Shown: in pieces, positions 1-33,830 of the stretch
Layout: each line of letters begins with the position of its first letter
Numbering within the stretch: the first letter of the stretch is position 1
IMG/VR virus record: IMGVR_UViG_2740892219_000011
From: a virus
Taxonomy: Duplodnaviria; Heunggongvirae; Uroviricota; Caudoviricetes
Length of the DNA stretch: 33,830 nucleotides
Direction: 5' to 3' (one strand)
Translations under genes and position numbers: made by a program
Notes under the pieces: model-generated
The model's input: the letters and a program-made list of their open reading frames with translations, nothing else
What the model was told of the DNA's origin: nothing
Database searches by the model: none

Positions 1-525
1 TTATACAGCTTTCTTTACATCGTTTTCTCTTACAGGGAAATTATGTTCTTTGCCTTCATACTGAGACAAAATCTCTCTCACTTTTTCCGGTGGTAATGCC
101 TGAAGAGTTTGCAGGGTTTTCTGTTGCTCCACAGTAATCCCTAATGCCTCTAATGCCTTATCTTTACTGACAATTGTAGGCATAAGTCCTTTAATCCCTG
201 CTACACGAATGATCTCCACTGCTGCGGCCTGCTCATCTGGTGTTAAGAAACTCATTGCATAAATTAGCCTCTCATCAACTGTATGGACGATTGATGTATG
301 CACTGGTTTATCAGAAAGTGAGGCTCCTTTAATGGCCCTGCGTGTTTCTTCTGGCAGACTGTTGATGTGATACTCATAAGCGACACCTTTCCCACCGTGA
401 CGCTGACGTTTTACCCAATCTTCCGCCACAGCTTTCCTGGTAATGTTAGTCGCCAACTTTGGTACACCAGGCATCCCTTCCAGCTCTTTCGCATTAAACC
501 ATTCTTTGATTTCAAAAGACATCAT
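1..525 (-). CDS. c: Mu-family immunity repressor, 174 aa; stop codon is at window positions 1-3
   Basis: Complete ORF divergent from ner across a 185-bp AT-rich control region. C-terminal segment LQALPPEKVREILSQYEG...VKKAV resembles the Mu Repc C-terminus as I recall it; N-terminus differs from Mu (D108-like immunity?). Confidence 0.8.
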   Translation of the reverse strand: MMSFEIKEWFNAKELEGMPGVPKLATNITRKAVAEDWVKRQRHGGKGVAYEYHINSLPEETRRAIKGASLSDKPVHTSIVHTVDERLIYAMSFLTPDEQAAAVEIIRVAGIKGLMPTIVSKDKALEALGITVEQQKTLQTLQALPPEKVREILSQYEGKEHNFPVRENDVKKAV

Positions 526-710
526 TTAAAATCCTAGTGATTTCAATAGAGACAAAATAAATTCATATAAAAATCATGCTGTTATATGAAATCATGATAA
601 ATCCTTTCAAATCACTATTGATTTAAAAATGATTCCACACTACATTGCACGATATGCCGTGAGCTACTTTATAGCGTAGCTCACGGGGGAATCTGAAAGG
701 ATTACATGAA
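526..710. promoter_or_regulatory. Divergent c/ner operator-promoter region (early promoter, repressor promoter, repressor and Ner operators; transposition enhancer expected here in Mu-type phages)
   Basis: AT-rich intergenic region between divergent c and ner. Contains several copies of TGATTTC/GAAATCA (e.g. near 541-551, 583-598, 608-635) and the dyad AAATCACTATTGATTT. Confidence 0.7.
657..686. promoter_or_regulatory. Perfect 11-bp inverted repeat CCGTGAGCTAC-N8-GTAGCTCACGG; candidate Ner operator
   Basis: Dyad read directly from the sequence, about 25 bp upstream of the ner ATG. Matches my recollection of the D108 Ner site (two 11-bp inverted repeats separated by 8 AT-rich bp). Confidence 0.6.
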
Positions 711-932
711 ATGCATATGAATAAAAGAACTAACCGCCAAGATTGGCACAGAGCTGACATCGTTGCAGAGCTACGAAAACGCAATATGTCACTAGCTGAA
801 TTGGGAAGATCTAATCATCTTTCGTCTTCAACATTAAAAAATGCTTTGGATAAGAGATATCCGAAAGCGGAGAAAATCATTGCAGATGCACTGGGAATGA
901 CACCGCAAGATATTTGGCCGTCTCGATACTAG
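711..932 (+). CDS. ner: Ner-type DNA-binding early regulator, 73 aa
   Basis: Small ORF immediately upstream of transposase A; DWHRADI...IWPSRY motifs typical of the Ner family; D108-like rather than Mu-like N-terminus. Confidence 0.85.
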
Positions 933-939
933 GTGCGCT

Positions 940-2928
940 ATGAAAGAATGGTATACAGCAAAAGAGTTGCTCGGTTTGGCAGGTTTACCAAAGCAAGCCA
1001 CTAACATTACACGTAAGGCACAAAGAGAAGGCTGGGAGTTCAGGCAGGTTGCAGGGACTAAAGGTGTATCATTTGAATTCAATATCAAATCATTCCCTGT
1101 CGCATTACGTGCTGAAATTCTGTTGCAACAAGGGAGAATTGAAACAAGTCAGGGGTATTTTGAAATCGCCCGCCCCACGCTGGAAGCCCATGATTATGAT
1201 CGTGAGGCACTGTGGAGCAAATGGGATAACGCCAGCGATTCCCAGCGCAGACTTGCTGAAAAATGGTTGCCTGCGGTTCAGGCTGCAGACGAAATGCTGA
1301 ACCAGGGGATTTCAACGAAAACGGCTTTTGCGACCGTTGCAGGGCATTACCAGGTCAGCGCATCCACTTTGCGGGACAAGTATTACCAGGTACAGAAGTT
1401 TGCGAAGCCTGACTGGGCGGCTGCACTTGTTGATGGACGTGGAGCATCCCGTCGCAATGTTCACAAAAGTGAATTTGACGAGGATGCCTGGCAGTTTCTG
1501 ATTGCAGATTATCTGCGACCGGAAAAACCCGCCTTCCGCAAATGTTATGAGCGTCTGGAACTGGCAGCCCGCGAGCATGGCTGGAGTATTCCCTCCCGTG
1601 CCACGGCCTTTCGCCGGATTCAGCAACTGGACGAGGCAATGGTTGTTGCCTGTCGTGAAGGTGAACATGCACTGATGCATCTGATACCGGCACAGCAGCG
1701 AACTGTGGAACACCTGGACGCCATGCAGTGGATCAACGGCGACGGTTATCTGCATAACGTCTTTGTACGCTGGTTTAACGGTGATGTGATCCGTCCGAAA
1801 ACATGGTTCTGGCAGGATGTGAAAACCCGAAAAATTCTGGGCTGGCGCTGCGATGTGAGCGAGAACATTGATTCAATTCGCCTCTCGTTCATGGATGTTG
1901 TGACTCGCTACGGTATCCCGGAGGATTTTCACATCACCATTGATAACACCCGTGGTGCTGCGAATAAATGGCTGACGGGAGGCGCGCCCAATCGCTACCG
2001 CTTTAAGGTAAAAGAGGACGATCCAAAAGGACTGTTTTTACTGATGGGGGCGAAAATGCACTGGACAAGCGTTGTTGCCGGTAAAGGCTGGGGCCAGGCA
2101 AAACCTGTTGAACGTGCTTTCGGTGTTGGTGGGCTTGAGGAATACGTTGATAAGCATCCGGCACTGGCTGGCGCATATACGGGGCCTAATCCGCAGGCAA
2201 AACCTGATAACTATGGCGACCGCGCTGTTGATGCAGAGCTGTTTCTGAAAACCCTTGCCGAAGGTGTGGCGATGTTCAATGCCAGAACAGGCCGTGAAAC
2301 AGAAATGTGCGGAGGCAAACTTTCGTTTGATGACGTTTTTGAGCGTGAATACGCCAGAACGATTGTGCGTAAGCCTACCGAAGAGCAAAAACGGATGCTG
2401 TTACTGCCTGCCGAGGCAGTGAACGTTTCACGTAAAGGCGAGTTCGCGCTTAAAGTTGGTGGCTCCCTTAAAGGTGCGAAAAACGTTTATTACAACATGG
2501 CGTTAATGAATGCCGGAGTAAAAAAAGTTGTGGTCAGATTTGATCCACAGCAGTTACACAGCACGGTTTATTGCTACACCCTTGACGGTCGGTTTATCTG
2601 TGAAGCGGAATGTCTGGCACCTGTTGCGTTTAATGATGCTGCGGCAGGCCGTGAATATCGCCGCCGCCAGAAACAACTGAAATCTGCGACGAAAGCAGCA
2701 ATTAAGGCACAGAAACAAATGGATGCACTGGAAGTGGCAGAGCTGCTGCCGCAGATAGCCGAACCTGAAGCACCAGAATCACGAATTGTCGGCATTTTCC
2801 GGCCTTCCGGTAATACGGAACGAGTGAAGAATCAGGAGCGTGATGATGAATACGAAACTGAGCGTGATGAATATCTGAATCATTCGCTGGATATTCTGGA
2901 ACAGAACAGACGTAAAAAAGCCATTTAA
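940..2928 (+). CDS. A: Transposase MuA (DDE transposase), 662 aa
   Basis: Length, position after ner, and long stretches (e.g. [38 protein letters not shown]..., [19 protein letters not shown]) recognisable as MuA; N-terminal about 60 aa diverge, as expected for a different enhancer/operator specificity. Confidence 0.95.
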
Positions 2929-2966
2929 TTAACGTTTAAACAAAATTTAATTACGAGGTTATTCAG

Positions 2967-3905
2967 ATGAATATTTCCGATATTCGCGCAGGACTGCGCA
3001 CGCTTGTAGAAAATGAAGAAACCACCTTTAAACAAATTGCTCTTGAGAGCGGACTTTCTACCGGAACTATCAGTAGTTTTATCAATGATAAGTACAACGG
3101 GGATAACGAGCGTGTTTCACAAATGCTGCAACGCTGGCTGGAAAAATATCATGCAGTTGCAGAACTACCTGAACCGCCCCGCTTTGTGGAAACGCAGACG
3201 GTAAAACAAATCTGGACAAGTATGCGTTTTGCCAGCCTGACTGAAAGTATTGCTGTTGTATGTGGCAATCCTGGTGTGGGCAAAACCGAAGCGGCCCGTG
3301 AATATCGCCGCACCAATAACAATGTCTGGATGATCACCATTACGCCATCCTGTGCCAGCGTTCTGGAATGTCTTACTGAACTGGCGTTTGAGCTGGGAAT
3401 GAATGACGCACCACGCCGTAAAGGGCCGCTCTCCCGCGCCCTGCGACGTCGCCTTGAAGGTACACAGGGGCTGGTTATCATCGACGAAGCTGATCATCTT
3501 GGTGCCGAAGTTCTGGAAGAACTCCGCCTGTTACAGGAATCAACCCGTATTGGCCTTGTGCTGATGGGAAATCACCGGGTTTATTCAAATATGACGGGGG
3601 GTAACAGAACGGTTGAATTTGCCCGTCTGTTTTCCCGTATTGCAAAGCGCACTGCAATTAATAAAACCAAAAAAGCCGATGTAAAAGCTATTGCGGATGC
3701 CTGGCAGATTAACGGCGAAAAAGAACTGGAGTTATTACAGCAGATTGCGCAGAAACCAGGTGCGCTTCGCATTCTGAATCATTCACTTCGCCTTGCCGCC
3801 ATGACGGCTCACGGTAAAGGTGAGCGTGTTAACGAAGATTATCTGCGTCAGGCTTTCCGTGAATTAGACCTGGACGTTGATATTTCAACGCTGCTGCGTA
3901 ATTAA
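2967..3905 (+). CDS. B: MuB ATP-dependent target DNA activator, 312 aa
   Basis: Walker A GNPGVGKT and Walker B LVIIDEADHL visible; size and position downstream of A match MuB. Confidence 0.9.
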   Translation: MNISDIRAGLRTLVENEETTFKQIALESGLSTGTISSFINDKYNGDNERVSQMLQRWLEKYHAVAELPEPPRFVETQTVKQIWTSMRFASLTESIAVVCGNPGVGKTEAAREYRRTNNNVWMITITPSCASVLECLTELAFELGMNDAPRRKGPLSRALRRRLEGTQGLVIIDEADHLGAEVLEELRLLQESTRIGLVLMGNHRVYSNMTGGNRTVEFARLFSRIAKRTAINKTKKADVKAIADAWQINGEKELELLQQIAQKPGALRILNHSLRLAAMTAHGKGERVNEDYLRQAFRELDLDVDISTLLRN

Positions 3906-3920
3906 GAAGGAGAAGAAATT

Positions 3921-4148
3921 ATGATGGCCCGAAATATAAAAATGGCAACGGATGCGCAGAACTGGTTACAGGCGCGCGGGAGTCATGTAAATGAATCATA
4001 TCTCGGCGTGGCGCGTCCGATTCTTGAAATCACTTACCCACCGGTGGAACTGGTAAAAAACGCGGTCAGAATTATGGAGCATAAGTCCGGGGTGGCCCGT
4101 TCTGTATGGACGGCCCGTCTTAATGGTTGCCAGATTATCTGGAGATAA
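3921..4148 (+). CDS. kil: Small early protein, Kil-like (host killing / cell-division inhibition), 75 aa
   Basis: First gene after B with RBS AAGGAGAAGAAATT; position and size match Mu kil as I recall. Function not verifiable from sequence alone. Confidence 0.6.
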
Positions 4149-4150
4149 CG

Positions 4151-4381
4151 ATGTGTATTAAAGCTGAAAAATATATTGAATGGGTTAAACACTGTCAGTG
4201 CCACGGGTTGCCGCTGACGACATATAAATGCCCCGGATGTGGTGAACAGATTATGACGCAATGCTCACCCGAAAAGGAAATTCGGGATTCCCTGACATGT
4301 TGTCCGTGGTGCAGCGCGGTTTTCTTTAAGCAGGTAAAAGGCGCGAAGGTAAAAGCCAGCGCAGTTATTCAGAATCAATAA
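4151..4381 (+). CDS. Cys-rich small early protein (putative zinc-binding), 76 aa
   Basis: ORF with RBS GGAGATAA 6 nt upstream of ATG 4151; multiple Cys pairs (CQCH, CPGCG, CCPWC). The upstream start at 4127 lacks an RBS. Confidence 0.6.
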   Translation: MCIKAEKYIEWVKHCQCHGLPLTTYKCPGCGEQIMTQCSPEKEIRDSLTCCPWCSAVFFKQVKGAKVKASAVIQNQ

Positions 4382-4392
4382 GGAGAAACAAA

Positions 4393-4662
4393 ATGGCAAA
4401 GGTTATCTTTGAGTTTACATGGCTGGAAAGTAGTGACGGTTGCAATGGGCGCAGAGAAGTTCTGGATGCAAAAGCATGTCTTGCAGATATCTCGCCAACG
4501 GAAAATACCGGGCCTCATGATTTACTGGCAAATATCGTCCTGACTATGGCTCCTGAAATTATTAAAAAGGCCAAAGATGAGATGCTGACCACTATGAAGA
4601 AAGTGGGTATGGAAGCTGAATGTGATTTAGTACCACATCCGGTGAATGCGGTTAAACATTAA
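4393..4662 (+). CDS. Hypothetical early protein, 89 aa
   Basis: ORF preceded by strong RBS AAGGAGAAA; tight spacing in the early operon. Confidence 0.65.
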   Translation: MAKVIFEFTWLESSDGCNGRREVLDAKACLADISPTENTGPHDLLANIVLTMAPEIIKKAKDEMLTTMKKVGMEAECDLVPHPVNAVKH

Positions 4663-4682
4663 TTCGCAAAGGAACGCTGACA

Positions 4683-5102
4683 ATGAACGTCAAAATCCGA
4701 AATGAAATTCAGGCATTAATCCGAATTCAGGAACGCAATAACAACGGTGGTGAATTACGCGAGTTTATTTGCGCCAGGAAAGTTGATGATTGTGGTGAAA
4801 AGACGTACCTGATTGCTTTCGACCATTACAGCATCTGTGCGCGTTATTGCGGCGAAAGCATATCCCGCGCCATTGCATTTGGAGGTGCGTTCAACGTGGA
4901 TTTATGGGAGTACGTCATGGACCGGGAATACATCTGCGCATCAGACCCTGAAGCCCGTGAAATGTGGCAGCGTATCTGGCGCGATTACCGGTTAATGGCA
5001 AAAGGCTGGGCGCGCTGCTGTTATTCCTCGCTTGCCCTGAAAGCGGTTCAGTTATCGCTGCGACATATTCCGGCACCACTGCGCGAGCCTCTGCTGTACT
5101 GA
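4683..5102 (+). CDS. Hypothetical early protein, 139 aa
   Basis: ORF with RBS AAAGGAACG; co-oriented in the early operon. Confidence 0.6.
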   Translation: MNVKIRNEIQALIRIQERNNNGGELREFICARKVDDCGEKTYLIAFDHYSICARYCGESISRAIAFGGAFNVDLWEYVMDREYICASDPEAREMWQRIWRDYRLMAKGWARCCYSSLALKAVQLSLRHIPAPLREPLLY

Positions 5103-5946: not shown

Positions 5947-6044
5947 TACCACCATTAATATTTAATTAATTCACATTCTTTTAATTATGGCGCGATGCGT
6001 CAGGGGATTGCTCGCGCCTGAAACAGATTACTGAGGAATAAAAC

Positions 6045-6575
6045 ATGGTTGATGCAAAAATTCTGAATGGTGTCAGCACATTATTACGGGCTTACGGACG
6101 CCTGACCTGCGGAGTTCTGGCTGAAAAAATGAATATGCTGCCCTCGTCAATGGTGTATTTCCTGCGTGATGCAGTTGATGCCGGAGTGCTCACCGAATGC
6201 AACGGATTTTATGACGTTCCGCGCCCGCGTCCGACGCCGCCTGTAAGACGAAACGTAACTGAGCAGCCTGCTGTTGATGATGCGGTGTGGTGCAACTGGC
6301 GTCGCTCATTACCCTGGGTGGAAGGTAATACCATCCCCGCGCTGGCAAAAGAGTTTGCGACGGGCGTACTGACCTGTGAATCCGTTCACATCGTTGCAGA
6401 AGTGGACAACAGCATGTGCGAACAGGGTATGCCCCGTTTTGTGATGGCTTATATCGATATCCGGCTTGGGCGTTTTATTTGCAGTTCAAGCGCCTGGAAT
6501 ATCACCGACCATGTACTGCGTTATCTCATTCTTGATTGTTCTCCGGTTCCCGCAGCGGTGCAGGAGGTGGCGTGA
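6045..6575 (+). CDS. Hypothetical early protein, 176 aa
   Basis: ORF with RBS GAGGAATAAAAC upstream of the ATG. Confidence 0.6.
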   Translation: MVDAKILNGVSTLLRAYGRLTCGVLAEKMNMLPSSMVYFLRDAVDAGVLTECNGFYDVPRPRPTPPVRRNVTEQPAVDDAVWCNWRRSLPWVEGNTIPALAKEFATGVLTCESVHIVAEVDNSMCEQGMPRFVMAYIDIRLGRFICSSSAWNITDHVLRYLILDCSPVPAAVQEVA

Positions 6576-7285: not shown

Positions 7286-7576
7286 ATGAATAATGAAACT
7301 AAATTTACGCCTAAAGACCTGGATGAAGAACTGGTGAAAGCTAAGATGCTTGAGCGTATGCGCGATGTTATTGAGACTGCAATCAGTAAAGGCTTTTCTG
7401 CGAGAGAGGCCCTTGAAATTATGACACGGGAAATTCATCTCATACGCGACGAAGTTTTGTTGCATAACAAAAAAGCCCACAACAATATTGTTTGTCGTGA
7501 GCTTGGCGTTGATGATTCAGCGGTTATTCCACAGCGTCAGTATCTGTGTGCTCTGATGAGAGGTTCCCGGCATTAA
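7286..7576 (+). CDS. Hypothetical early protein, about 96 aa
   Basis: ATG 7286 preceded by GAAGGTGA. Its 3' end overlaps the convergent minus-strand ORF by about 53 nt, so one of the two calls may be wrong. Confidence 0.45.
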   Translation: MNNETKFTPKDLDEELVKAKMLERMRDVIETAISKGFSAREALEIMTREIHLIRDEVLLHNKKAHNNIVCRELGVDDSAVIPQRQYLCALMRGSRH

Positions 7577-7883
7577 CAATATCCTGCCTTGAAGCCCAGA
7601 GCTTATTGAGCAGCAGATCAACATACTCATCGGCCTCAAAATCCAGTTCTTCGAACGTTTTTCGGTTCTTATAGCTGGCCTGTGTATTTCTGATGATGTC
7701 ATAAGCATCGTGCATGTTGATAACACCGTTTTCAATCAGCTTAATCATCAGATTACCGACCAGCATAAAACCGGTTATACCAAAGAATTTATCCTGGTTA
7801 TTAACAGGGGTGTCTTTCTGGTTTGTTTCGAAATCTGGGTTTTGTTCATCATCCGACACCGTATGTTGTTCTTGTTCAGCCAT
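7524..7883 (-). CDS. Reverse-oriented, highly acidic hypothetical protein, 119 aa
   Basis: Minus-strand ORF with RBS AAGGAAAT 5-7 nt upstream of its ATG. Hand count gives about 24 Asp/Glu versus about 9 Lys/Arg; composition is protein-like. It is the only clearly protein-like frame across 7577-7952 and sits in an AT-richer stretch. Confidence 0.55.
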   Translation of the reverse strand: MAEQEQHTVSDDEQNPDFETNQKDTPVNNQDKFFGITGFMLVGNLMIKLIENGVINMHDAYDIIRNTQASYKNRKTFEELDFEADEYVDLLLNKLWASRQDIVNAGNLSSEHTDTDAVE

Positions 7884-7952
7884 AATATTTCCTTTTATGT
7901 TATTACTGAATATGGCGGTGTTGCAGCACCGCCTCTTTCCGGAGGTACGATC

Positions 7953-8504
7953 ATGAGTCGCACATCCCTGATTAAATTAATCCATGTCGCCCGTCGGGAG
8001 CTACAACTCGACGACGACACTTACCGCGCTTTTCTGATGCAGAAAACGGGCAAAATCAGTTGCCGCGAGCTTACGGTTACGCAACTGGAACAGGTGCTCG
8101 ATGCCATGAAAGAACGCGGCTTTAAGAAGCTGAATAAATACCCCCGTCGCCGCTTTAAGGAACATGTCACACCCCGCGAGAAGGTGTATAAAATCTGGCA
8201 GCAGATGGCAGAAGACGGTTTTATTACCGATGGCGGTGATGTGGCGCTGGACAGATATGTTCAACGCCTGACCGCGAAACGCAACGGCGGACAGGGTGTT
8301 TCCACACTGGCGTGGTGTCATGGCGACACGCTGCTGACAGTCCTCGAAACACTCAAACAGTGGCACATCCGCTGTATTCGTGAAGCCTTTTCCCGTCACG
8401 GGCTTCCATTGCCGGTCAGTCCGTCCGGTCGTGAACTGCGCGGCTATGATGCCATGACGGCGGCTTATGCCCATGCCAGAAAGACACAGAGGATGGCACA
8501 ATGA
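7953..8504 (+). CDS. gemA: GemA-like early protein, 183 aa
   Basis: ATG 7953 preceded by GGAGG at 7941-7945; position directly upstream of mor. The long ORF from 7710 is an artefactual upstream extension. Confidence 0.75.
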   Translation: MSRTSLIKLIHVARRELQLDDDTYRAFLMQKTGKISCRELTVTQLEQVLDAMKERGFKKLNKYPRRRFKEHVTPREKVYKIWQQMAEDGFITDGGDVALDRYVQRLTAKRNGGQGVSTLAWCHGDTLLTVLETLKQWHIRCIREAFSRHGLPLPVSPSGRELRGYDAMTAAYAHARKTQRMAQ

Positions 8505-9682: not shown

Positions 9683-10105
9683 ATGCAGCATGATTTATTT
9701 GAACACGATCCGGCAATTCGCCAGTTAATCGGACATATTGATAACATCCCGGCCCCGGAACTGGAATCACGCTGGCCCCGTTCGGTGGTTGATCTGATTG
9801 ATGTTCTGGAAAACGAACTGAAACGCCAGAACGTCAGCAATCCCCGTGAACTTGCCCGTAAACAGGCCGTTGCCCTGTCATGTTTTCTGGGTGGACGGCA
9901 GTTTTACATCCCCTGCGGCGATACGATCCTGACCGCGTTACGCGACGATTTGCTTTACTGCCAGTTTAATGGTCGTAACATGGAAGAACTGCGTCGCCAG
10001 TACCGCCTGTCCCAGCCGCAGATCTACCAGATTATTGCCCGCCAGAGAAAGCTGCATACACGACGTCATCAGCCTGATCTGTTCTCACCTGAAAGCCCAA
10101 AATAA
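9683..10105 (+). CDS. C: C late-gene transcriptional activator (Mor/C family), 140 aa
   Basis: Paralog of mor (shared C-terminal DNA-binding region); located just upstream of the lysis and late genes. Confidence 0.9.
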   Translation: MQHDLFEHDPAIRQLIGHIDNIPAPELESRWPRSVVDLIDVLENELKRQNVSNPRELARKQAVALSCFLGGRQFYIPCGDTILTALRDDLLYCQFNGRNMEELRRQYRLSQPQIYQIIARQRKLHTRRHQPDLFSPESPK

Positions 10106-10126
10106 CCGGCATCCTGCCGGTTATTT
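10104..10126 (+). terminator. Hairpin, probable terminator of the middle transcript
   Basis: AACCGGCA-TCC-TGCCGGTT stem-loop overlapping the C stop, followed by TTATTT (weak U-tract). Confidence 0.5.
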
Positions 10127-15812: not shown

Positions 15813-17112
15813 TCTGGCGTATGCCGCACGCCTCCCGCCAAAGGAGGCTGTCGCGTATTTCCGCGCCAAAGGTTACAACATCACCTGGAACTGGTACGAA
15901 CAACTGGCAGACGCGCACGCCTGCGCCTTTACCGTTGCCAAAGCCACCCGGATGGATGTACTGACCACAATCCGTGAGGAAGTGGAGCGGGCTGTCAGTG
16001 AAGGCATCACCCGTGAGGAATTTACCCGCACACTTGCCCCCCGGCTGCAAAAACTCGGATGGTGGGGAAAACAAATCATCGTGGATGCAGACGGAAACGC
16101 AAAGGTAATCGAGCTGGGCAGTCCGCGTCGTCTGGCAACCATTTATAACGTCAATACCCGTACGGCGTATGGGGCAGGACGTTATGCGCAGATGATGAAT
16201 ACCGCCGATTTGTACCCGTACTGGCAGTACGTTGCCGTTATGGATGGCAGAACACGCCCGGAACATGCGCGGCTGCACAATATGGTTTTCCGGTATGACG
16301 ACATTTTCTGGCAGACGCATTACCCGCCCAATGGCTGGAACTGCCGCTGTCGCGTCCGGGCGCTGTCTGCGGCCCGCATGAAAGAACTGGGGCTACAGGT
16401 CAGTTATGGTACGTCATTCATGAATACCCGCGAAGTGGATGCCGGTACGGATGAAAGCACCGGAGAGATTTTCCGCACATCGTCAACCACGTTTGACAAC
16501 GGTCGGGTAAAAATGACGCCAGATGTGGGCTGGTCATATAACCCCGGTTCGGCGGCATTTGGTACGGATCAGGCACTGATTCGAAAACTGGTGGAAGTTC
16601 GTGACGCGCAGCTGCGTGAGCAGGTTGTTCAGACGCTGAATAACAGCCGGGAGCGTCAGCTTGCTTTTTCCCTCTGGTTTAAACGTCTGGCGAAATCACG
16701 CCGGGCCGGACATGAGGTCCGTACGCTGGGTTTTATGACGGGATCCGTGGCGGAGGCCGTATATCAGCGCACCGGGAATATGCCAGCCCGTCTGCTTGTG
16801 ATGAACGGGAAAAGTCTGGCGACCACTGCTGATGCCGCCCTGAAACCGGAGGATTTACAGCGTCTGCCGTCGCTGATGGCAAAACCACAGGCGGTATTGT
16901 GGGACAGGGAGAACCACCAGTTGCTGTATGTTGTGGCAACCCGCGACGGCACTGCAAAAGTTGTGGTCAGAACATCGCAGGCTGTCAGCAAACAGAATGA
17001 CCGGGCGGATGTGCTGGTCAGTATCAGCCGCGTATCTGCACAGTCGCTTGAAGCCGCGATTGCTGACGGGATGATTGACATACTGGAGGGGCATGTGGAG
17101 GTGAATAAGTGA
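15793..17112 (+). CDS. F: Mu F-like head morphogenesis / minor capsid protein, about 439 aa
   Basis: Follows portal; first ATG at 15793 (the track ORF begins at GTG 15757). Confidence 0.8.
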   Translation: MPQQTIDLAYAARLPPKEAVAYFRAKGYNITWNWYEQLADAHACAFTVAKATRMDVLTTIREEVERAVSEGITREEFTRTLAPRLQKLGWWGKQIIVDADGNAKVIELGSPRRLATIYNVNTRTAYGAGRYAQMMNTADLYPYWQYVAVMDGRTRPEHARLHNMVFRYDDIFWQTHYPPNGWNCRCRVRALSAARMKELGLQVSYGTSFMNTREVDAGTDESTGEIFRTSSTTFDNGRVKMTPDVGWSYNPGSAAFGTDQALIRKLVEVRDAQLREQVVQTLNNSRERQLAFSLWFKRLAKSRRAGHEVRTLGFMTGSVAEAVYQRTGNMPARLLVMNGKSLATTADAALKPEDLQRLPSLMAKPQAVLWDRENHQLLYVVATRDGTAKVVVRTSQAVSKQNDRADVLVSISRVSAQSLEAAIADGMIDILEGHVEVNK

Positions 17113-19775: not shown

Positions 19776-19783
19776 CCGTCGTT

Positions 19784-19807
19784 AAAAGGCGGTTCAGGCC
19801 GCCTTTT
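19784..19807 (+). terminator. Hairpin after the capsid gene (terminator or attenuator)
   Basis: AAAAGGCGG-TTCAGG-CCGCCTTTT perfect stem immediately after the T stop. Confidence 0.5.
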
Positions 19808-19841
19808 AACCTGATTTAAAGGAAAAGGAGGAGCATGTGTT

Positions 19842-30645: not shown

Positions 30646-31178
30646 CACCCTATCAGACGGCCTTTCTGCAATTACTGCCGTCAGGGCTTGCCTGGAATAA
30701 AAGCCCCGACAGCAAATTATCTGCGCTGGCGCAGGCCATCAGCGACGTGATTGCCACTGCGGCGGATGATGCGCGGCAAATGCTGCGGGAGCGTTTCCCG
30801 TCCACATCCCGCTGGTATCTGGGGGAGTGGGAATCATTTCTGGGGTTGCCGGACTGTACCAGCGAAAACGGCACCCTGTCCGAACGCCAGCGGGCTGCCG
30901 CGAATAAAATGCGTATGACCGGCAATCTGAGTCGGCGCTTTTATGAATGGCTGGCTGCGCAGTACGGTTTTACCGTCAGGCTGACGGATTCCACAGAAGG
31001 CCAGTGGGTTACGCAGGTCAATATTTACGGTATTAAAAATTATCGCAACGCAACGGTGCTGGATAATGTTCTGACGCCGTTACGTGTTTATGAATCGGGT
31101 GCGCTGGAATGTTTACTGGAGAAATATAAACCCGCACATCAGATTTATAAATTTGTTTACCATGACGGAGATAACTAA
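30636..31178 (+). CDS. Baseplate / tail-fibre attachment protein (gpI-like), 180 aa
   Basis: Last baseplate gene before tail fibre S. Confidence 0.6.
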   Translation: MAVTPYQTAFLQLLPSGLAWNKSPDSKLSALAQAISDVIATAADDARQMLRERFPSTSRWYLGEWESFLGLPDCTSENGTLSERQRAAANKMRMTGNLSRRFYEWLAAQYGFTVRLTDSTEGQWVTQVNIYGIKNYRNATVLDNVLTPLRVYESGALECLLEKYKPAHQIYKFVYHDGDN

Positions 31179-32299
31179 TGTTTTATATTGATAACGACAG
31201 CGGCGTAACCGTCATGCCGCCCGTATCCGCCCAGCGTAGTGCTATCGTTCGCTGGTTTTCAGAAGGTGACGGGAATAATGTTATCACATGGCCCGGCATG
31301 GACTGGTTTAATATTGTGCAGGCGGAGTTATTAAACACGCTGGAAGAAGCCGGTATTCAACCGGATAAAACAAAATTAAACCAGCTTGCACTGTCCATTA
31401 AAGCCATTATGAGCAATAACGCGCTGCTGATAAAAAATAACCTCAGCGAAATTAAAACTGCCGGGGCATCAGCACAGCGTACAGCACGTGAAAATCTGGA
31501 TATCTGGGATGCCAGCCTGAACAAAAAAGGACTCGTTCAGCTAACCAGTGCCACTGACAGCCCCAGTGAAACGCTGGCAGCCACCGCAAAAGCGGTGAAA
31601 ATTGCGATGGATAAAAACCTCGGTTTACAGGAAACTGTAAAATTAGCTTCGGAAGCGTTATCAACATATGGCGGGGTGGTTAACGGTGATGTGATTATCA
31701 AGGGCATTCTCTCGTTAATTGGGAATGAATTACTTATTGAAAAAGATAATGGCTTTTCTGGTATTCACATCAGAAACAAGAGCACGGTTGCAGGAAGTGC
31801 AAATGGAGTCGATTTCTCATTTGGCGGAGCGATTATGTCATCGCTCATTTGCGGAATAATGGAAAATGGCGCGAACTACATAGATGTTGCATTGTCTCCG
31901 GCAGGCAATATTTCTGACCGCCGCAAGGTTGCATTTACTTTGGATGGAAATATCAGGCAGTTAATTCCCCAGAATGGATGGAGCATTCAGGGGTATACAA
32001 AAAACAGTGATTTTACCCAGGCGATGGCCGATGCTGGCTGGGTACGTTTTCCAAATGGCATCATTTTTCAATGGTGTTGGGGAAATACTGATGCCAGTGG
32101 CTGGGCATCTGCCCCGTTTCCTGTTGGTTGGCCTGTTCGTTGCTTTGGTTTGTTAGCCTGTAACGTTGCTGGTGACTCGATAGCAAGTGCAATTGCGGGT
32201 GTTAAAAGATTAAATGATCGCGATATGCAGGTCACGTTAATGGAAAGGTCTGGGGTTGCTGTTTCTAAACCATTCTTCTGTATTGGTGTGGGGTGTTAA
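31178..32299 (+). CDS. S: Tail fibre protein S, with constant part and G-segment variable part, 373 aa
   Basis: Followed by a tail-fibre assembly gene and by inverted U'-S' on the minus strand; a gix-like recombination site lies inside the ORF. Confidence 0.8.
   Translation: MFYIDNDSGVTVMPPVSAQRSAIVRWFSEGDGNNVITWPGMDWFNIVQAELLNTLEEAGIQPDKTKLNQLALSIKAIMSNNALLIKNNLSEIKTAGASAQRTARENLDIWDASLNKKGLVQLTSATDSPSETLAATAKAVKIAMDKNLGLQETVKLASEALSTYGGVVNGDVIIKGILSLIGNELLIEKDNGFSGIHIRNKSTVAGSANGVDFSFGGAIMSSLICGIMENGANYIDVALSPAGNISDRRKVAFTLDGNIRQLIPQNGWSIQGYTKNSDFTQAMADAGWVRFPNGIIFQWCWGNTDASGWASAPFPVGWPVRCFGLLACNVAGDSIASAIAGVKRLNDRDMQVTLMERSGVAVSKPFFCIGVGC
31609..31634. other. gix-like DNA-invertase crossover site (left boundary of the invertible G segment) inside S
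   Basis: Reverse complement reads TTCCTGTAAACCGAGGTTTTTATCC, closely resembling the Gin/Hin recombination site consensus as I recall it. Confidence 0.6.
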
Positions 32300-32301
32300 T
32301 C

Positions 32302-32778
32302 ATGTCCAGTAAAATATTCTATAGTGCCAGGAATAATACGTTTTTCTTTGAATCCATGAAACCGGACTATGAAAAATCAGGCGCATGGCCTGACGATTTG
32401 GTGGCAGTCACAAACGATATGTATGAAGAGTTTACGGGAAGACCGCCAGAGGGAAAAAAGAGAGGCCGTGATGAATCTGGTTTCCCTACATGGATTGATG
32501 TATCAGAACCAACAACAGAGCAGTTAATCGCATTAAAAGAGCAGAAGAAAAAGGATTTAGCCGAGATTGCGAACACAGAAATTGCCTGGCGGCAGGATGC
32601 TGTTGACGCAGGGATGGCGACAGAAGCAGAAATCACTGTACTGGCTGAATGGAAAAAATATCGTGTGCTGCTTATGCGTATTGATACATCAACCGCGACG
32701 GATATTGAGTGGCCCGCTGTTCCAGACGAACAAAGCGGCAAAGAGAGCAGCGCAGAGGATGTGAAAACGACGCTATAA
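32302..32778 (+). CDS. U: Tail fibre assembly protein, 158 aa
   Basis: ATG 32302 just after the S stop (the track ORF begins at GTG 32293); small acidic protein downstream of the fibre gene. Confidence 0.75.
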   Translation: MSSKIFYSARNNTFFFESMKPDYEKSGAWPDDLVAVTNDMYEEFTGRPPEGKKRGRDESGFPTWIDVSEPTTEQLIALKEQKKKDLAEIANTEIAWRQDAVDAGMATEAEITVLAEWKKYRVLLMRIDTSTATDIEWPAVPDEQSGKESSAEDVKTTL

Positions 32779-32882
32779 TACCAGCACAATTATTATCATT
32801 TTTGTTATTTTGTATTTCCTTGCTTTCCGCAGTCATGTGGATATGGAAAAGCCTGGATGGCCACAAAAGCCTGAGTAAAATT

Positions 32883-32902
32883 AAGGCCCGATAACGGGCC
32901 TT
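32883..32902. terminator. Hairpin between convergent U and U' (probable terminator)
   Basis: AAGGCCCG-ATAA-CGGGCCTT perfect stem immediately 3' of the U' stop on the minus strand, flanked by A/T runs. Confidence 0.55.
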
Positions 32903-32904
32903 TC

Positions 32905-33438
32905 TCATTCTGGTTGTTCGGGGAATGTTACCGGCAGGCTGGAGGTGTCTGTGGATTCGACTTTCTGCGCATAGAGCATCCACTCGGTTAATTTCTGTTT
33001 ATTCTCATCGGAAATGATGCCCAGCCGTAGCTGTGAGTCCCATAGCTGGGTTTTATCCCTGACAAGTTGCAACAGGCTTTGTTTTTCATTCTCTGCCTGC
33101 TGCCTCTGCTCTTCCCCGGTATAAGTTCGCTTTATCACCGCACCATCTTTGAACATCCATTTACCCGAAATATCAGCCCGGCGATTTGCTGTAATATCAG
33201 GTAATTCAACGACGCTTGCGCCTTCTGGATTAATTGCTGAAACATCCTTTTCAATACAAATAATAACGCCGTTATGGTCATAGACCATTTTCAACGTATC
33301 AGACTGGAAATTCTTTTGTTCCTCATACCAGTTTTTTCCATCCTCTGTATAAAGCCATTTGATGTTAAATTGCTTTGTTAGCTGATATTGCTCTTTTGTT
33401 TTAGGATTGCCAGCAGTAATGTTTTTTAAGTGCATCAT
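32905..33438 (-). CDS. U': Alternative tail fibre assembly protein, 177 aa
   Basis: Minus-strand ORF inside the G segment, typical Tfa-like protein, convergent with U. Confidence 0.8.
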   Translation of the reverse strand: MMHLKNITAGNPKTKEQYQLTKQFNIKWLYTEDGKNWYEEQKNFQSDTLKMVYDHNGVIICIEKDVSAINPEGASVVELPDITANRRADISGKWMFKDGAVIKRTYTGEEQRQQAENEKQSLLQLVRDKTQLWDSQLRLGIISDENKQKLTEWMLYAQKVESTDTSSLPVTFPEQPE

Positions 33439-33440
33439 CG

Positions 33441-33830
33441 TTAAATACTCCCCGCGTTATACCACGTCCCATTAATGCAATACTGAATTGGCCTTGCCTG
33501 AGTTGTATCAATTAATTCGTCACGGTTTCCGTTAACTGAACCTGTAACGACATAACCTGACTTATCAGACCAACCAGGCCCATTCCATGTTTGAACAGAT
33601 GACAGTCCTCCTAAACGGACACCTGTAATAAATCGTGAATTACATTCCGCTTTAGTATATGCACCAACATCTCCTGCTGAAGGTTTTCTGGTGGTGGTGT
33701 AAAATTCGGACCAGTCGGCTTCAAAACCATAACCATCACGGGCTGAACGATAAAAGATACCGCCGTTCTTATAATTCACGCGGAACTGTACTGCCGGACA
33801 ACTACCCGTATTCATATTGAAATGAAGAAT
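33441..33830 (-). CDS. S': Alternative tail fibre variable C-terminal part, partial; 5' end lies beyond the window
   Basis: Minus-strand ORF ending at 33441; the frame stays open to the window edge. Gly/Asn/Thr-rich receptor-binding-like C-terminus, unrelated to the C-terminus of S. Confidence 0.7.
   Translation of the reverse strand: MLHFNMNTGSCPAVQFRVNYKNGGIFYRSARDGYGFEADWSEFYTTTRKPSAGDVGAYTKAECNSRFITGVRLGGLSSVQTWNGPGWSDKSGYVVTGSVNGNRDELIDTTQARPIQYCINGTWYNAGSI

Follow-up and report, generated by a model that had tools for sequence, protein, structure and literature searches.

Ner operators of Mu, D108 and related phages

In phage Mu, the Ner protein binds two 12-bp sites of the form ANPyTAPuCTAAGT with 6 bp between them, and the third repressor operator of this phage overlaps the Ner site. 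The consensus, ANYTARCTAAGT, has only two matches in the Mu genome, at 1029-1040 on the plus strand and at 1047-1058 on the minus strand; these lie 6 bp apart, directly follow the annotated early promoter Pe (Mu 991-1028), and occupy positions +2 to +31 of Pe. For phage D108, footprinting in the DuBow laboratory, by Tolias and DuBow in 1985 and by Kukolj and colleagues in 1989 (EMBO J 8:3141), reportedly found that Ner protects a pair of perfect 11-bp inverted repeats on either side of an 8-bp A+T-rich spacer. A D108 Ner operator within a D108-type immunity region is already known, and the locus described below is nothing new in kind. The GenBank record of D108 (GQ357916) is without annotation of a Ner site, and a full-text literature search for the arm sequence returned unrelated papers only.

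Other members of the group have been compared at the protein level. In Shigella phage SfMu, c and Ner are 89% and 98% identical to their D108 counterparts, versus 24% and 47% to those of Mu (PMC4406740). The N-termini of repressor c and transposase A are similar, as already stated in the title of a 1986 paper by Mizuuchi et al. (cited in PMC3820752). Crystals of EnrR on DNA have been obtained, and Ner shares many of the residues through which EnrR contacts the DNA (PMC9023278).

The stretch of DNA analysed here, referred to as the window, consists of 33,830 nucleotides from a Caudoviricetes virus (IMG/VR record IMGVR_UViG_2740892219_000011). It begins with the repressor gene, c, which is followed by an intergenic control region, ner, and the gene for transposase A, in the same order and with the same spacing as in D108.

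Comparison of the immunity region with D108 and Mu

Sequence comparison places the left end of the window very close to D108. Positions 1-3300 differ from GQ357916 by two mismatches, at 378 and 2664, and the intergenic region 526-710 is identical in the two phages, including both arms of the inverted repeat discussed below and its spacer. A megablast search with positions 1-3000 aligned them to 'Escherichia virus Mu_3F6' (LR595867) at 100% and to D108 at 99.9%, and to Mu from position 1128 only, at 98%; a blastn search of window positions 1-1127 against Mu produced zero matches. When D108 and Mu were compared with each other by blastn, the unmatched part of D108 was 361-1466, which corresponds to 22-1127 of the window. 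This block, which includes c, the operators, ner, and the first 62 or so codons of A, has one mismatch to D108 and no DNA homology to Mu, and on these comparisons it is a classical heteroimmunity cassette.

The proteins agree with the DNA. Repressor c (1-525, minus strand, 174 aa; Pfam HTH_Tnp_Mu_1, E=3e-52) is identical to D108 c at 173 of 174 residues, with 31% identity to Mu c. The one difference, due to base 378, is Y50 in the window versus N50 in the D108 reference. Residue 50, which lies inside the DNA-binding domain, is Y also in 27 of 28 relatives and N in the D108 GenBank reference only; the reference sequence may have come from a laboratory mutant, maybe a thermo-inducible one. Ner (711-932, plus strand, 73 aa; Pfam HTH_35, E=1.2e-28) matches D108 Ner at 73 of 73 residues and Mu Ner at 49%, and its matches among solved structures are Mu Ner (1NER/1NEQ) and EnrR (7F9H). 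Transposase A (940-2928, plus strand, 662 aa; Pfam HTH_Tnp_Mu_1, HTH_Tnp_Mu_2, DDE_2 and Mu-transpos_C) is the same as D108 A over all 662 residues; compared with Mu A, it has 23 identities in the first 60 residues and is about 100% identical thereafter. Codons 1-62 (940-1127) are D108-specific and the remainder is common to Mu, so that the switch to Mu homology falls near codon 63, with the DNA breakpoint at 1128. The N-termini of c and A are identical to each other at 36 of 72 positions, and their coding DNA forms an imperfect 54-nt inverted repeat (entry I1 of the repeat search). The boundary of the cassette may lie inside A because the operator-binding domain of the transposase must travel with the operators.

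A D108-type immunity region, which the original prediction had proposed from an inverted repeat upstream of ner together with non-Mu N-termini of c, Ner and A, is thereby supported by c, by the intergenic DNA and by the A N-terminus. For c the proposal was too narrow, as the gene is non-Mu in DNA over its whole length and not just at the N-terminus. An immunity region 100% identical to that of the window is also carried by a prophage of E. coli 2020C08-115 (NZ_CM132302), where the insertion is in ygfK; this gene is annotated there as a truncated pseudogene, a typical outcome when a Mu-like phage transposes into a gene of its host.

The inverted repeat upstream of ner

At 657-686, two 11-bp arms that are 100% complementary form a perfect inverted repeat around 8 bp, seen on direct reading and returned by the repeat search (entry I9), in agreement with what had been noticed originally. 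On the plus strand, the left arm is CCGTGAGCTAC (657-667), the right arm is GTAGCTCACGG (676-686), and the A+T-rich spacer between them is TTTATAGC (668-675, with A or T at six of eight positions). The dyad does lie just upstream of ner, as proposed: 24 nt separate its end at 686 from the ATG at 711, and a likely ribosome-binding site of ner, AAAGGA (696-701, plus strand), can be read 9 nt before the ATG. From its position, its conservation and its identity to D108, we consider this dyad very probably to be the site at which Ner acts as a repressor in a transposable phage of D108 immunity, in other words the Ner operator.

Such a structure is rare in this DNA. The 30-nt pattern is found in a single copy in the window, even with up to three mismatches, and the full dyad pattern occurs in none of 100 dinucleotide-preserving shuffles. 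Perfect inverted repeats with arms of at least 11 and a spacer of 3-20 number three in the 33.8-kb window, whereas 30 block shuffles had 0.17 on average. The other two, at 10100-10126 and 19781-19810, lie about 5-20 nt from the places expected for the D108 terminators after genes C and T, as judged by coordinate conversion and not by base-by-base alignment. Additional Ner half-sites were also sought; four further matches with two mismatches bring the total to six, against 6.3 expected, which is the level of chance. A partial 8-bp half-site within ner itself (768-775, repeat I21) was likewise judged to be a chance occurrence.

The exact dyad is present in D108 at 996-1025 and absent from Mu, and we take it to be the same operator that the DuBow laboratory reportedly footprinted. 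A search of the window for a Mu-type Ner site, with at most one mismatch allowed, gave zero matches. The Mu operator, AGCTAGCTAAGT-N6-ACTTAGTTAAAT (Mu 1029-1058), nevertheless resembles the dyad in its design: each consists of two inverted half-sites with TAGCT, placed before ner and just past the early promoter, which is annotated in Mu and predicted in the window, and each phage has an HTH_35 protein of about 75 aa, here predicted to be the one that binds. The half-site centres are 18 bp apart in Mu and 19 bp apart in the window. The two operators differ in arm sequence, in arm length (12 versus 11) and in spacer (6 versus 8), and their Ner proteins are 49% identical.

Predicted early promoter and repeats in the c-ner control region

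To the left of the dyad, a predicted early promoter Pe occupies 618-646 on the plus strand, with TTGATT (618-623) as the -35 element, a 17-bp spacer, and TACATT (641-646) as the -10 element. The transcript is predicted to start at about 652-654. The assignment was made by eye and by conservation, as both hexamers are invariant in six aligned sequences (alignment A1, below), and the corresponding place in Vibrio phage martha reads TTGATT-17-TATTCT. A sigma-70 scan of 400-1000 called zero promoters; TTGATT-17-TACATT has 8 of 12 consensus matches, which is below the scan threshold. A leftward promoter for c, Pc, was sought to the right of the dyad, where the sole candidate is weak (TGTAAT at 706-701).

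Further to the left, between 507 and 636, there are about six TGATTTCAA-like repeats in both orientations, comprising the direct and inverted repeat families D1, D3, I2, I7, I13, I14 and I19. By analogy with Mu, repressor c and the N-terminal domain of A, which is homologous to it, probably bind here, so that the repeats would be putative operators and a putative transposition enhancer.

Conservation of the dyad in relatives

Alignment A1 includes the window, D108, E24377A, RIVM_C019217, SfMu and RM13745. The arms are unchanged in all of them. In SfMu and E. coli RM13745, none of the 22 arm positions has changed, as compared to three of the eight spacer positions, which turn TTTATAGC into TTTGCAGA and keep the spacer length (p ~0.014 by hypergeometric count). 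In these two, the left portion of the intergenic operator region has diverged considerably, and c is 89-90% identical to that of the window. Among complete E. coli genomes, 45 of 5426 have the immunity region, at 86.6-100% identity; SfMu and the approximately 45 E. coli prophages share the same dyad arms and the same architecture, with Ner proteins that are 98-100% identical. Such conservation of the operator-like type, together with the exact match in D108 and the adjacent cognate ner, supports the reading of the dyad as a Ner operator that had been suggested originally.

The core of the dyad can be followed further. There are 13 exact matches to TGAGCTAC-N8-GTAGCTCA in 2.9 million viral contigs, nine of which sit between homologues of c and ner, about 27 nt from ner; the remaining four are without ner, and one of these resembles a tRNA-type GTAGCTCAGTGG. 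With up to one mismatch allowed per half, AGCTAC-N8-GTAGCT was found 21-33 nt from the ner start in 13 of 60 distinct upstream regions of Ner homologues, all of them with Ner at least 70% identical, and a control search yielded six matches in 109 kb from the same loci. The motif stands 21-33 nt upstream of ner in the relatives L033, L055 and L013 and in Vibrio phage martha 12B12, where Ner is 65-81% identical; the core is kept even in martha (Ner 65%) and in contig L013 (Ner 66%). More distant Ner homologues have different dyads, some of them Mu-like (TAGCTAGC in L035).

Seven distinct dyads could be aligned without gaps. The spacer is 8 bp long in all seven and variable in sequence, and the inner six pairs of the arms never vary. 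In the outer arm, four pairs have changed on both sides, in a total of seven cells, as in L013, where CCG...CGG has become TTA...TAA; 93.5% of cells are still complementary. Perfect symmetry is not obligatory, since three IMG/VR contigs (L024, L025 and L028) have a right arm that reads GTAGCTCGCGG, with A changed to G at the equivalent of 683, next to a Ner that is 100% identical.

A constant core half-site, a fixed spacer length and position, and symmetric drift that goes with the divergence of Ner are what a two-fold protein operator predicts. We favour the view that AGCTAC-N8-GTAGCT represents a Ner-operator class of transposable phages of Escherichia, Shigella and Vibrio, in which the outer arm bases would co-evolve with Ner.

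Alternative readings of the dyad

Instead of being a protein operator, the dyad could act mainly as RNA: as a 5'-terminal stem-loop of the early transcript, or as its complement in the c transcript, that sets mRNA stability or the translation of ner. It would be transcribed if Pe starts near 652, and the fold energy of the leader (650-725) is -24.2 kcal/mol (z = -4.9, equalled by none of 200 shuffles). Fold energy is not independent evidence, however, because any palindrome folds well. There is covariation at the outer positions of the stem, and an RNA hairpin would predict such symmetric change just as an operator does; some of the one-sided changes make G.U pairs, and the natural A-to-G variant retains a U.G pair. 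The nine asymmetric cells nonetheless divide into four wobbles and five mismatches, which is near the chance proportion reasoned for transitions and does not discriminate between RNA and DNA. What argues against the stem-loop is that the half-site core is constant in sequence, beyond the demands of pairing alone, that three outer pairs are lost in Vibrio phage martha, that the whole window has zero Rfam matches, and that Mu has at the same place a different dyad, which fits the known consensus of its own Ner. In addition, D108 Ner has reportedly been footprinted on this very DNA. A mainly RNA function is, on balance, very unlikely. A double function, in which the dyad is the Ner operator and besides this adds a stable 5' stem-loop to the early transcript, with its complement doing likewise in the c transcript, seems to us unlikely too, if less so; if it were true, one sequence would set both transcription, via Ner, and either mRNA stability or ner translation.

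The dyad is located within the c-ner control region, and, given the overlap of the third repressor operator with the Ner site in Mu, it might be a site for the c repressor, similar to O3, and not for Ner. This reading is highly improbable, because the dyad lacks the TGATTTCAA-type motif that occurs about six times at 507-636, and because the core follows Ner across the relatives and does not follow c. Thus, L033 keeps the core with a c that is 62% identical and a Ner that is 81% identical, and martha keeps it too; the repressor CDS of that phage is annotated with 666 nt and is thus longer than c here, which has 525 nt.

An intrinsic terminator, an attenuator or a chance palindrome can be practically dismissed: the stem is G+C-rich and 11 bp long, and the two other perfect repeats as large as this in the window seem to correspond to annotated terminators of D108, but no T-run follows position 686 (GGGAATCTGAAAGG), the terminator scan made no call at the dyad, the dyad precedes the first gene of the operon, its occurrence by chance is at odds with the shuffling results given above, and it is conserved across genera.

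Nothing in the analysis contradicted the explanation of the dyad as the Ner operator.

Relationship to Mu_3F6 and mosaic structure of the phage

The closest deposited phage is Mu_3F6 (LR595867), to which the window is 99.98% identical over 1-31614 (six mismatches) and 99.95% identical over the remainder; their immunity regions are identical. The two differ in that the G segment has the opposite orientation, and in that 66 nt of gene S beside the inversion site are missing from the window. A literature search for 'Mu_3F6' found zero papers.

Overall, the window is 98.3% identical to D108 (local blastn). Outside the immunity region it diverges from D108 in patches (4001-5000, 6001-6500, 8001-8500 and 16501-17000, at 88-95% identity), and the first three of these are nearer to Mu over the aligned part; in particular, 4001-5000 and 6001-6500 are about 89% identical to D108, versus 95-98% to Mu over the aligned part. 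The variable part of the tail fibre is different as well. The phage is therefore a further mosaic of Mu and D108 and not D108 itself. The D108-like mosaic relative of Mu envisaged by the original prediction agrees with this picture, and so does its description of Gam and the late genes as Mu-like, since these have 97-99% identity to their counterparts in Mu and in D108 alike.

Two other regions of the phage may be mentioned. In the early operon, a 119-aa open reading frame is antisense to its surroundings (7524-7883, minus strand) and matches phrog_38610, a family of unknown function; the segment that contains it, 7312-7913, is common to D108 and Mu_3F6 and absent from Mu. In the tail-fibre gene S (31178-32299), 66 nt, or 22 codons in frame, are missing at 31613/31614 compared to Mu, D108 and Mu_3F6. 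They belong to the constant part of S, immediately to the left of the G-segment inversion site, and with their loss the left G-inversion half-site lacks its outer half, so that TTATCCAAAACC reads TGGATAAAAACC. With the left half-site altered in this way, Gin might no longer invert the G segment. No record among the 5426 complete E. coli genomes searched spans this junction, and it is absent also from Mu, D108 and Mu_3F6; the gap may be either a genuine deletion or an artefact of assembly. The rest of the window, 31614-33830, ends inside the G segment. Neither D108 nor Mu matches the expressed variable part of S (31615-32829), which among deposited phages is found only in Mu_3F6.

Proposed role of the Ner operator

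That Ner binds the dyad, where the promoters start and which phages the prophage is immune to are all matters that we infer from sequence, and the following model is to be taken in that sense. Two molecules of Ner, a small helix-turn-helix protein encoded directly downstream, would bind the two 11-bp arms, with 19 bp from the centre of one arm to that of the other. With a transcript start near 652-654, the operator would extend from about +4 to about +34 of the predicted Pe, and Ner on the dyad would obstruct RNA polymerase at this promoter. Leftward transcription from the promoter of c probably also has to pass the dyad, and bound Ner would, by analogy with Mu, obstruct that promoter too. Ner at the dyad would therefore turn down both early transcription (ner, A, B and the downstream genes) and transcription of c. 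As in Mu, this repression would set in once the lytic cycle has begun.

The Ner operator would be one part of a cassette of about 1.1 kb, together with c, the operators of c, ner, and the operator-binding N-terminal domain of A. This cassette is of D108 type and is unrelated in DNA to that of Mu, from which one would expect a prophage with immunity to D108 but none to Mu.

The main value of these results is in correct annotation, that is, in the prediction of a D108-immune rather than a Mu-immune prophage. Assignment to the D108 type predicts the superinfection immunity of the prophage as well as the repressor that would control its induction. There is also a small comparative addition, namely that the half-site core, a fixed spacer of 8 bp, and the placement with respect to ner are kept out to a Vibrio phage, with symmetric change in the outer arms, a pattern that supports the textbook model of an operator from sequence alone.
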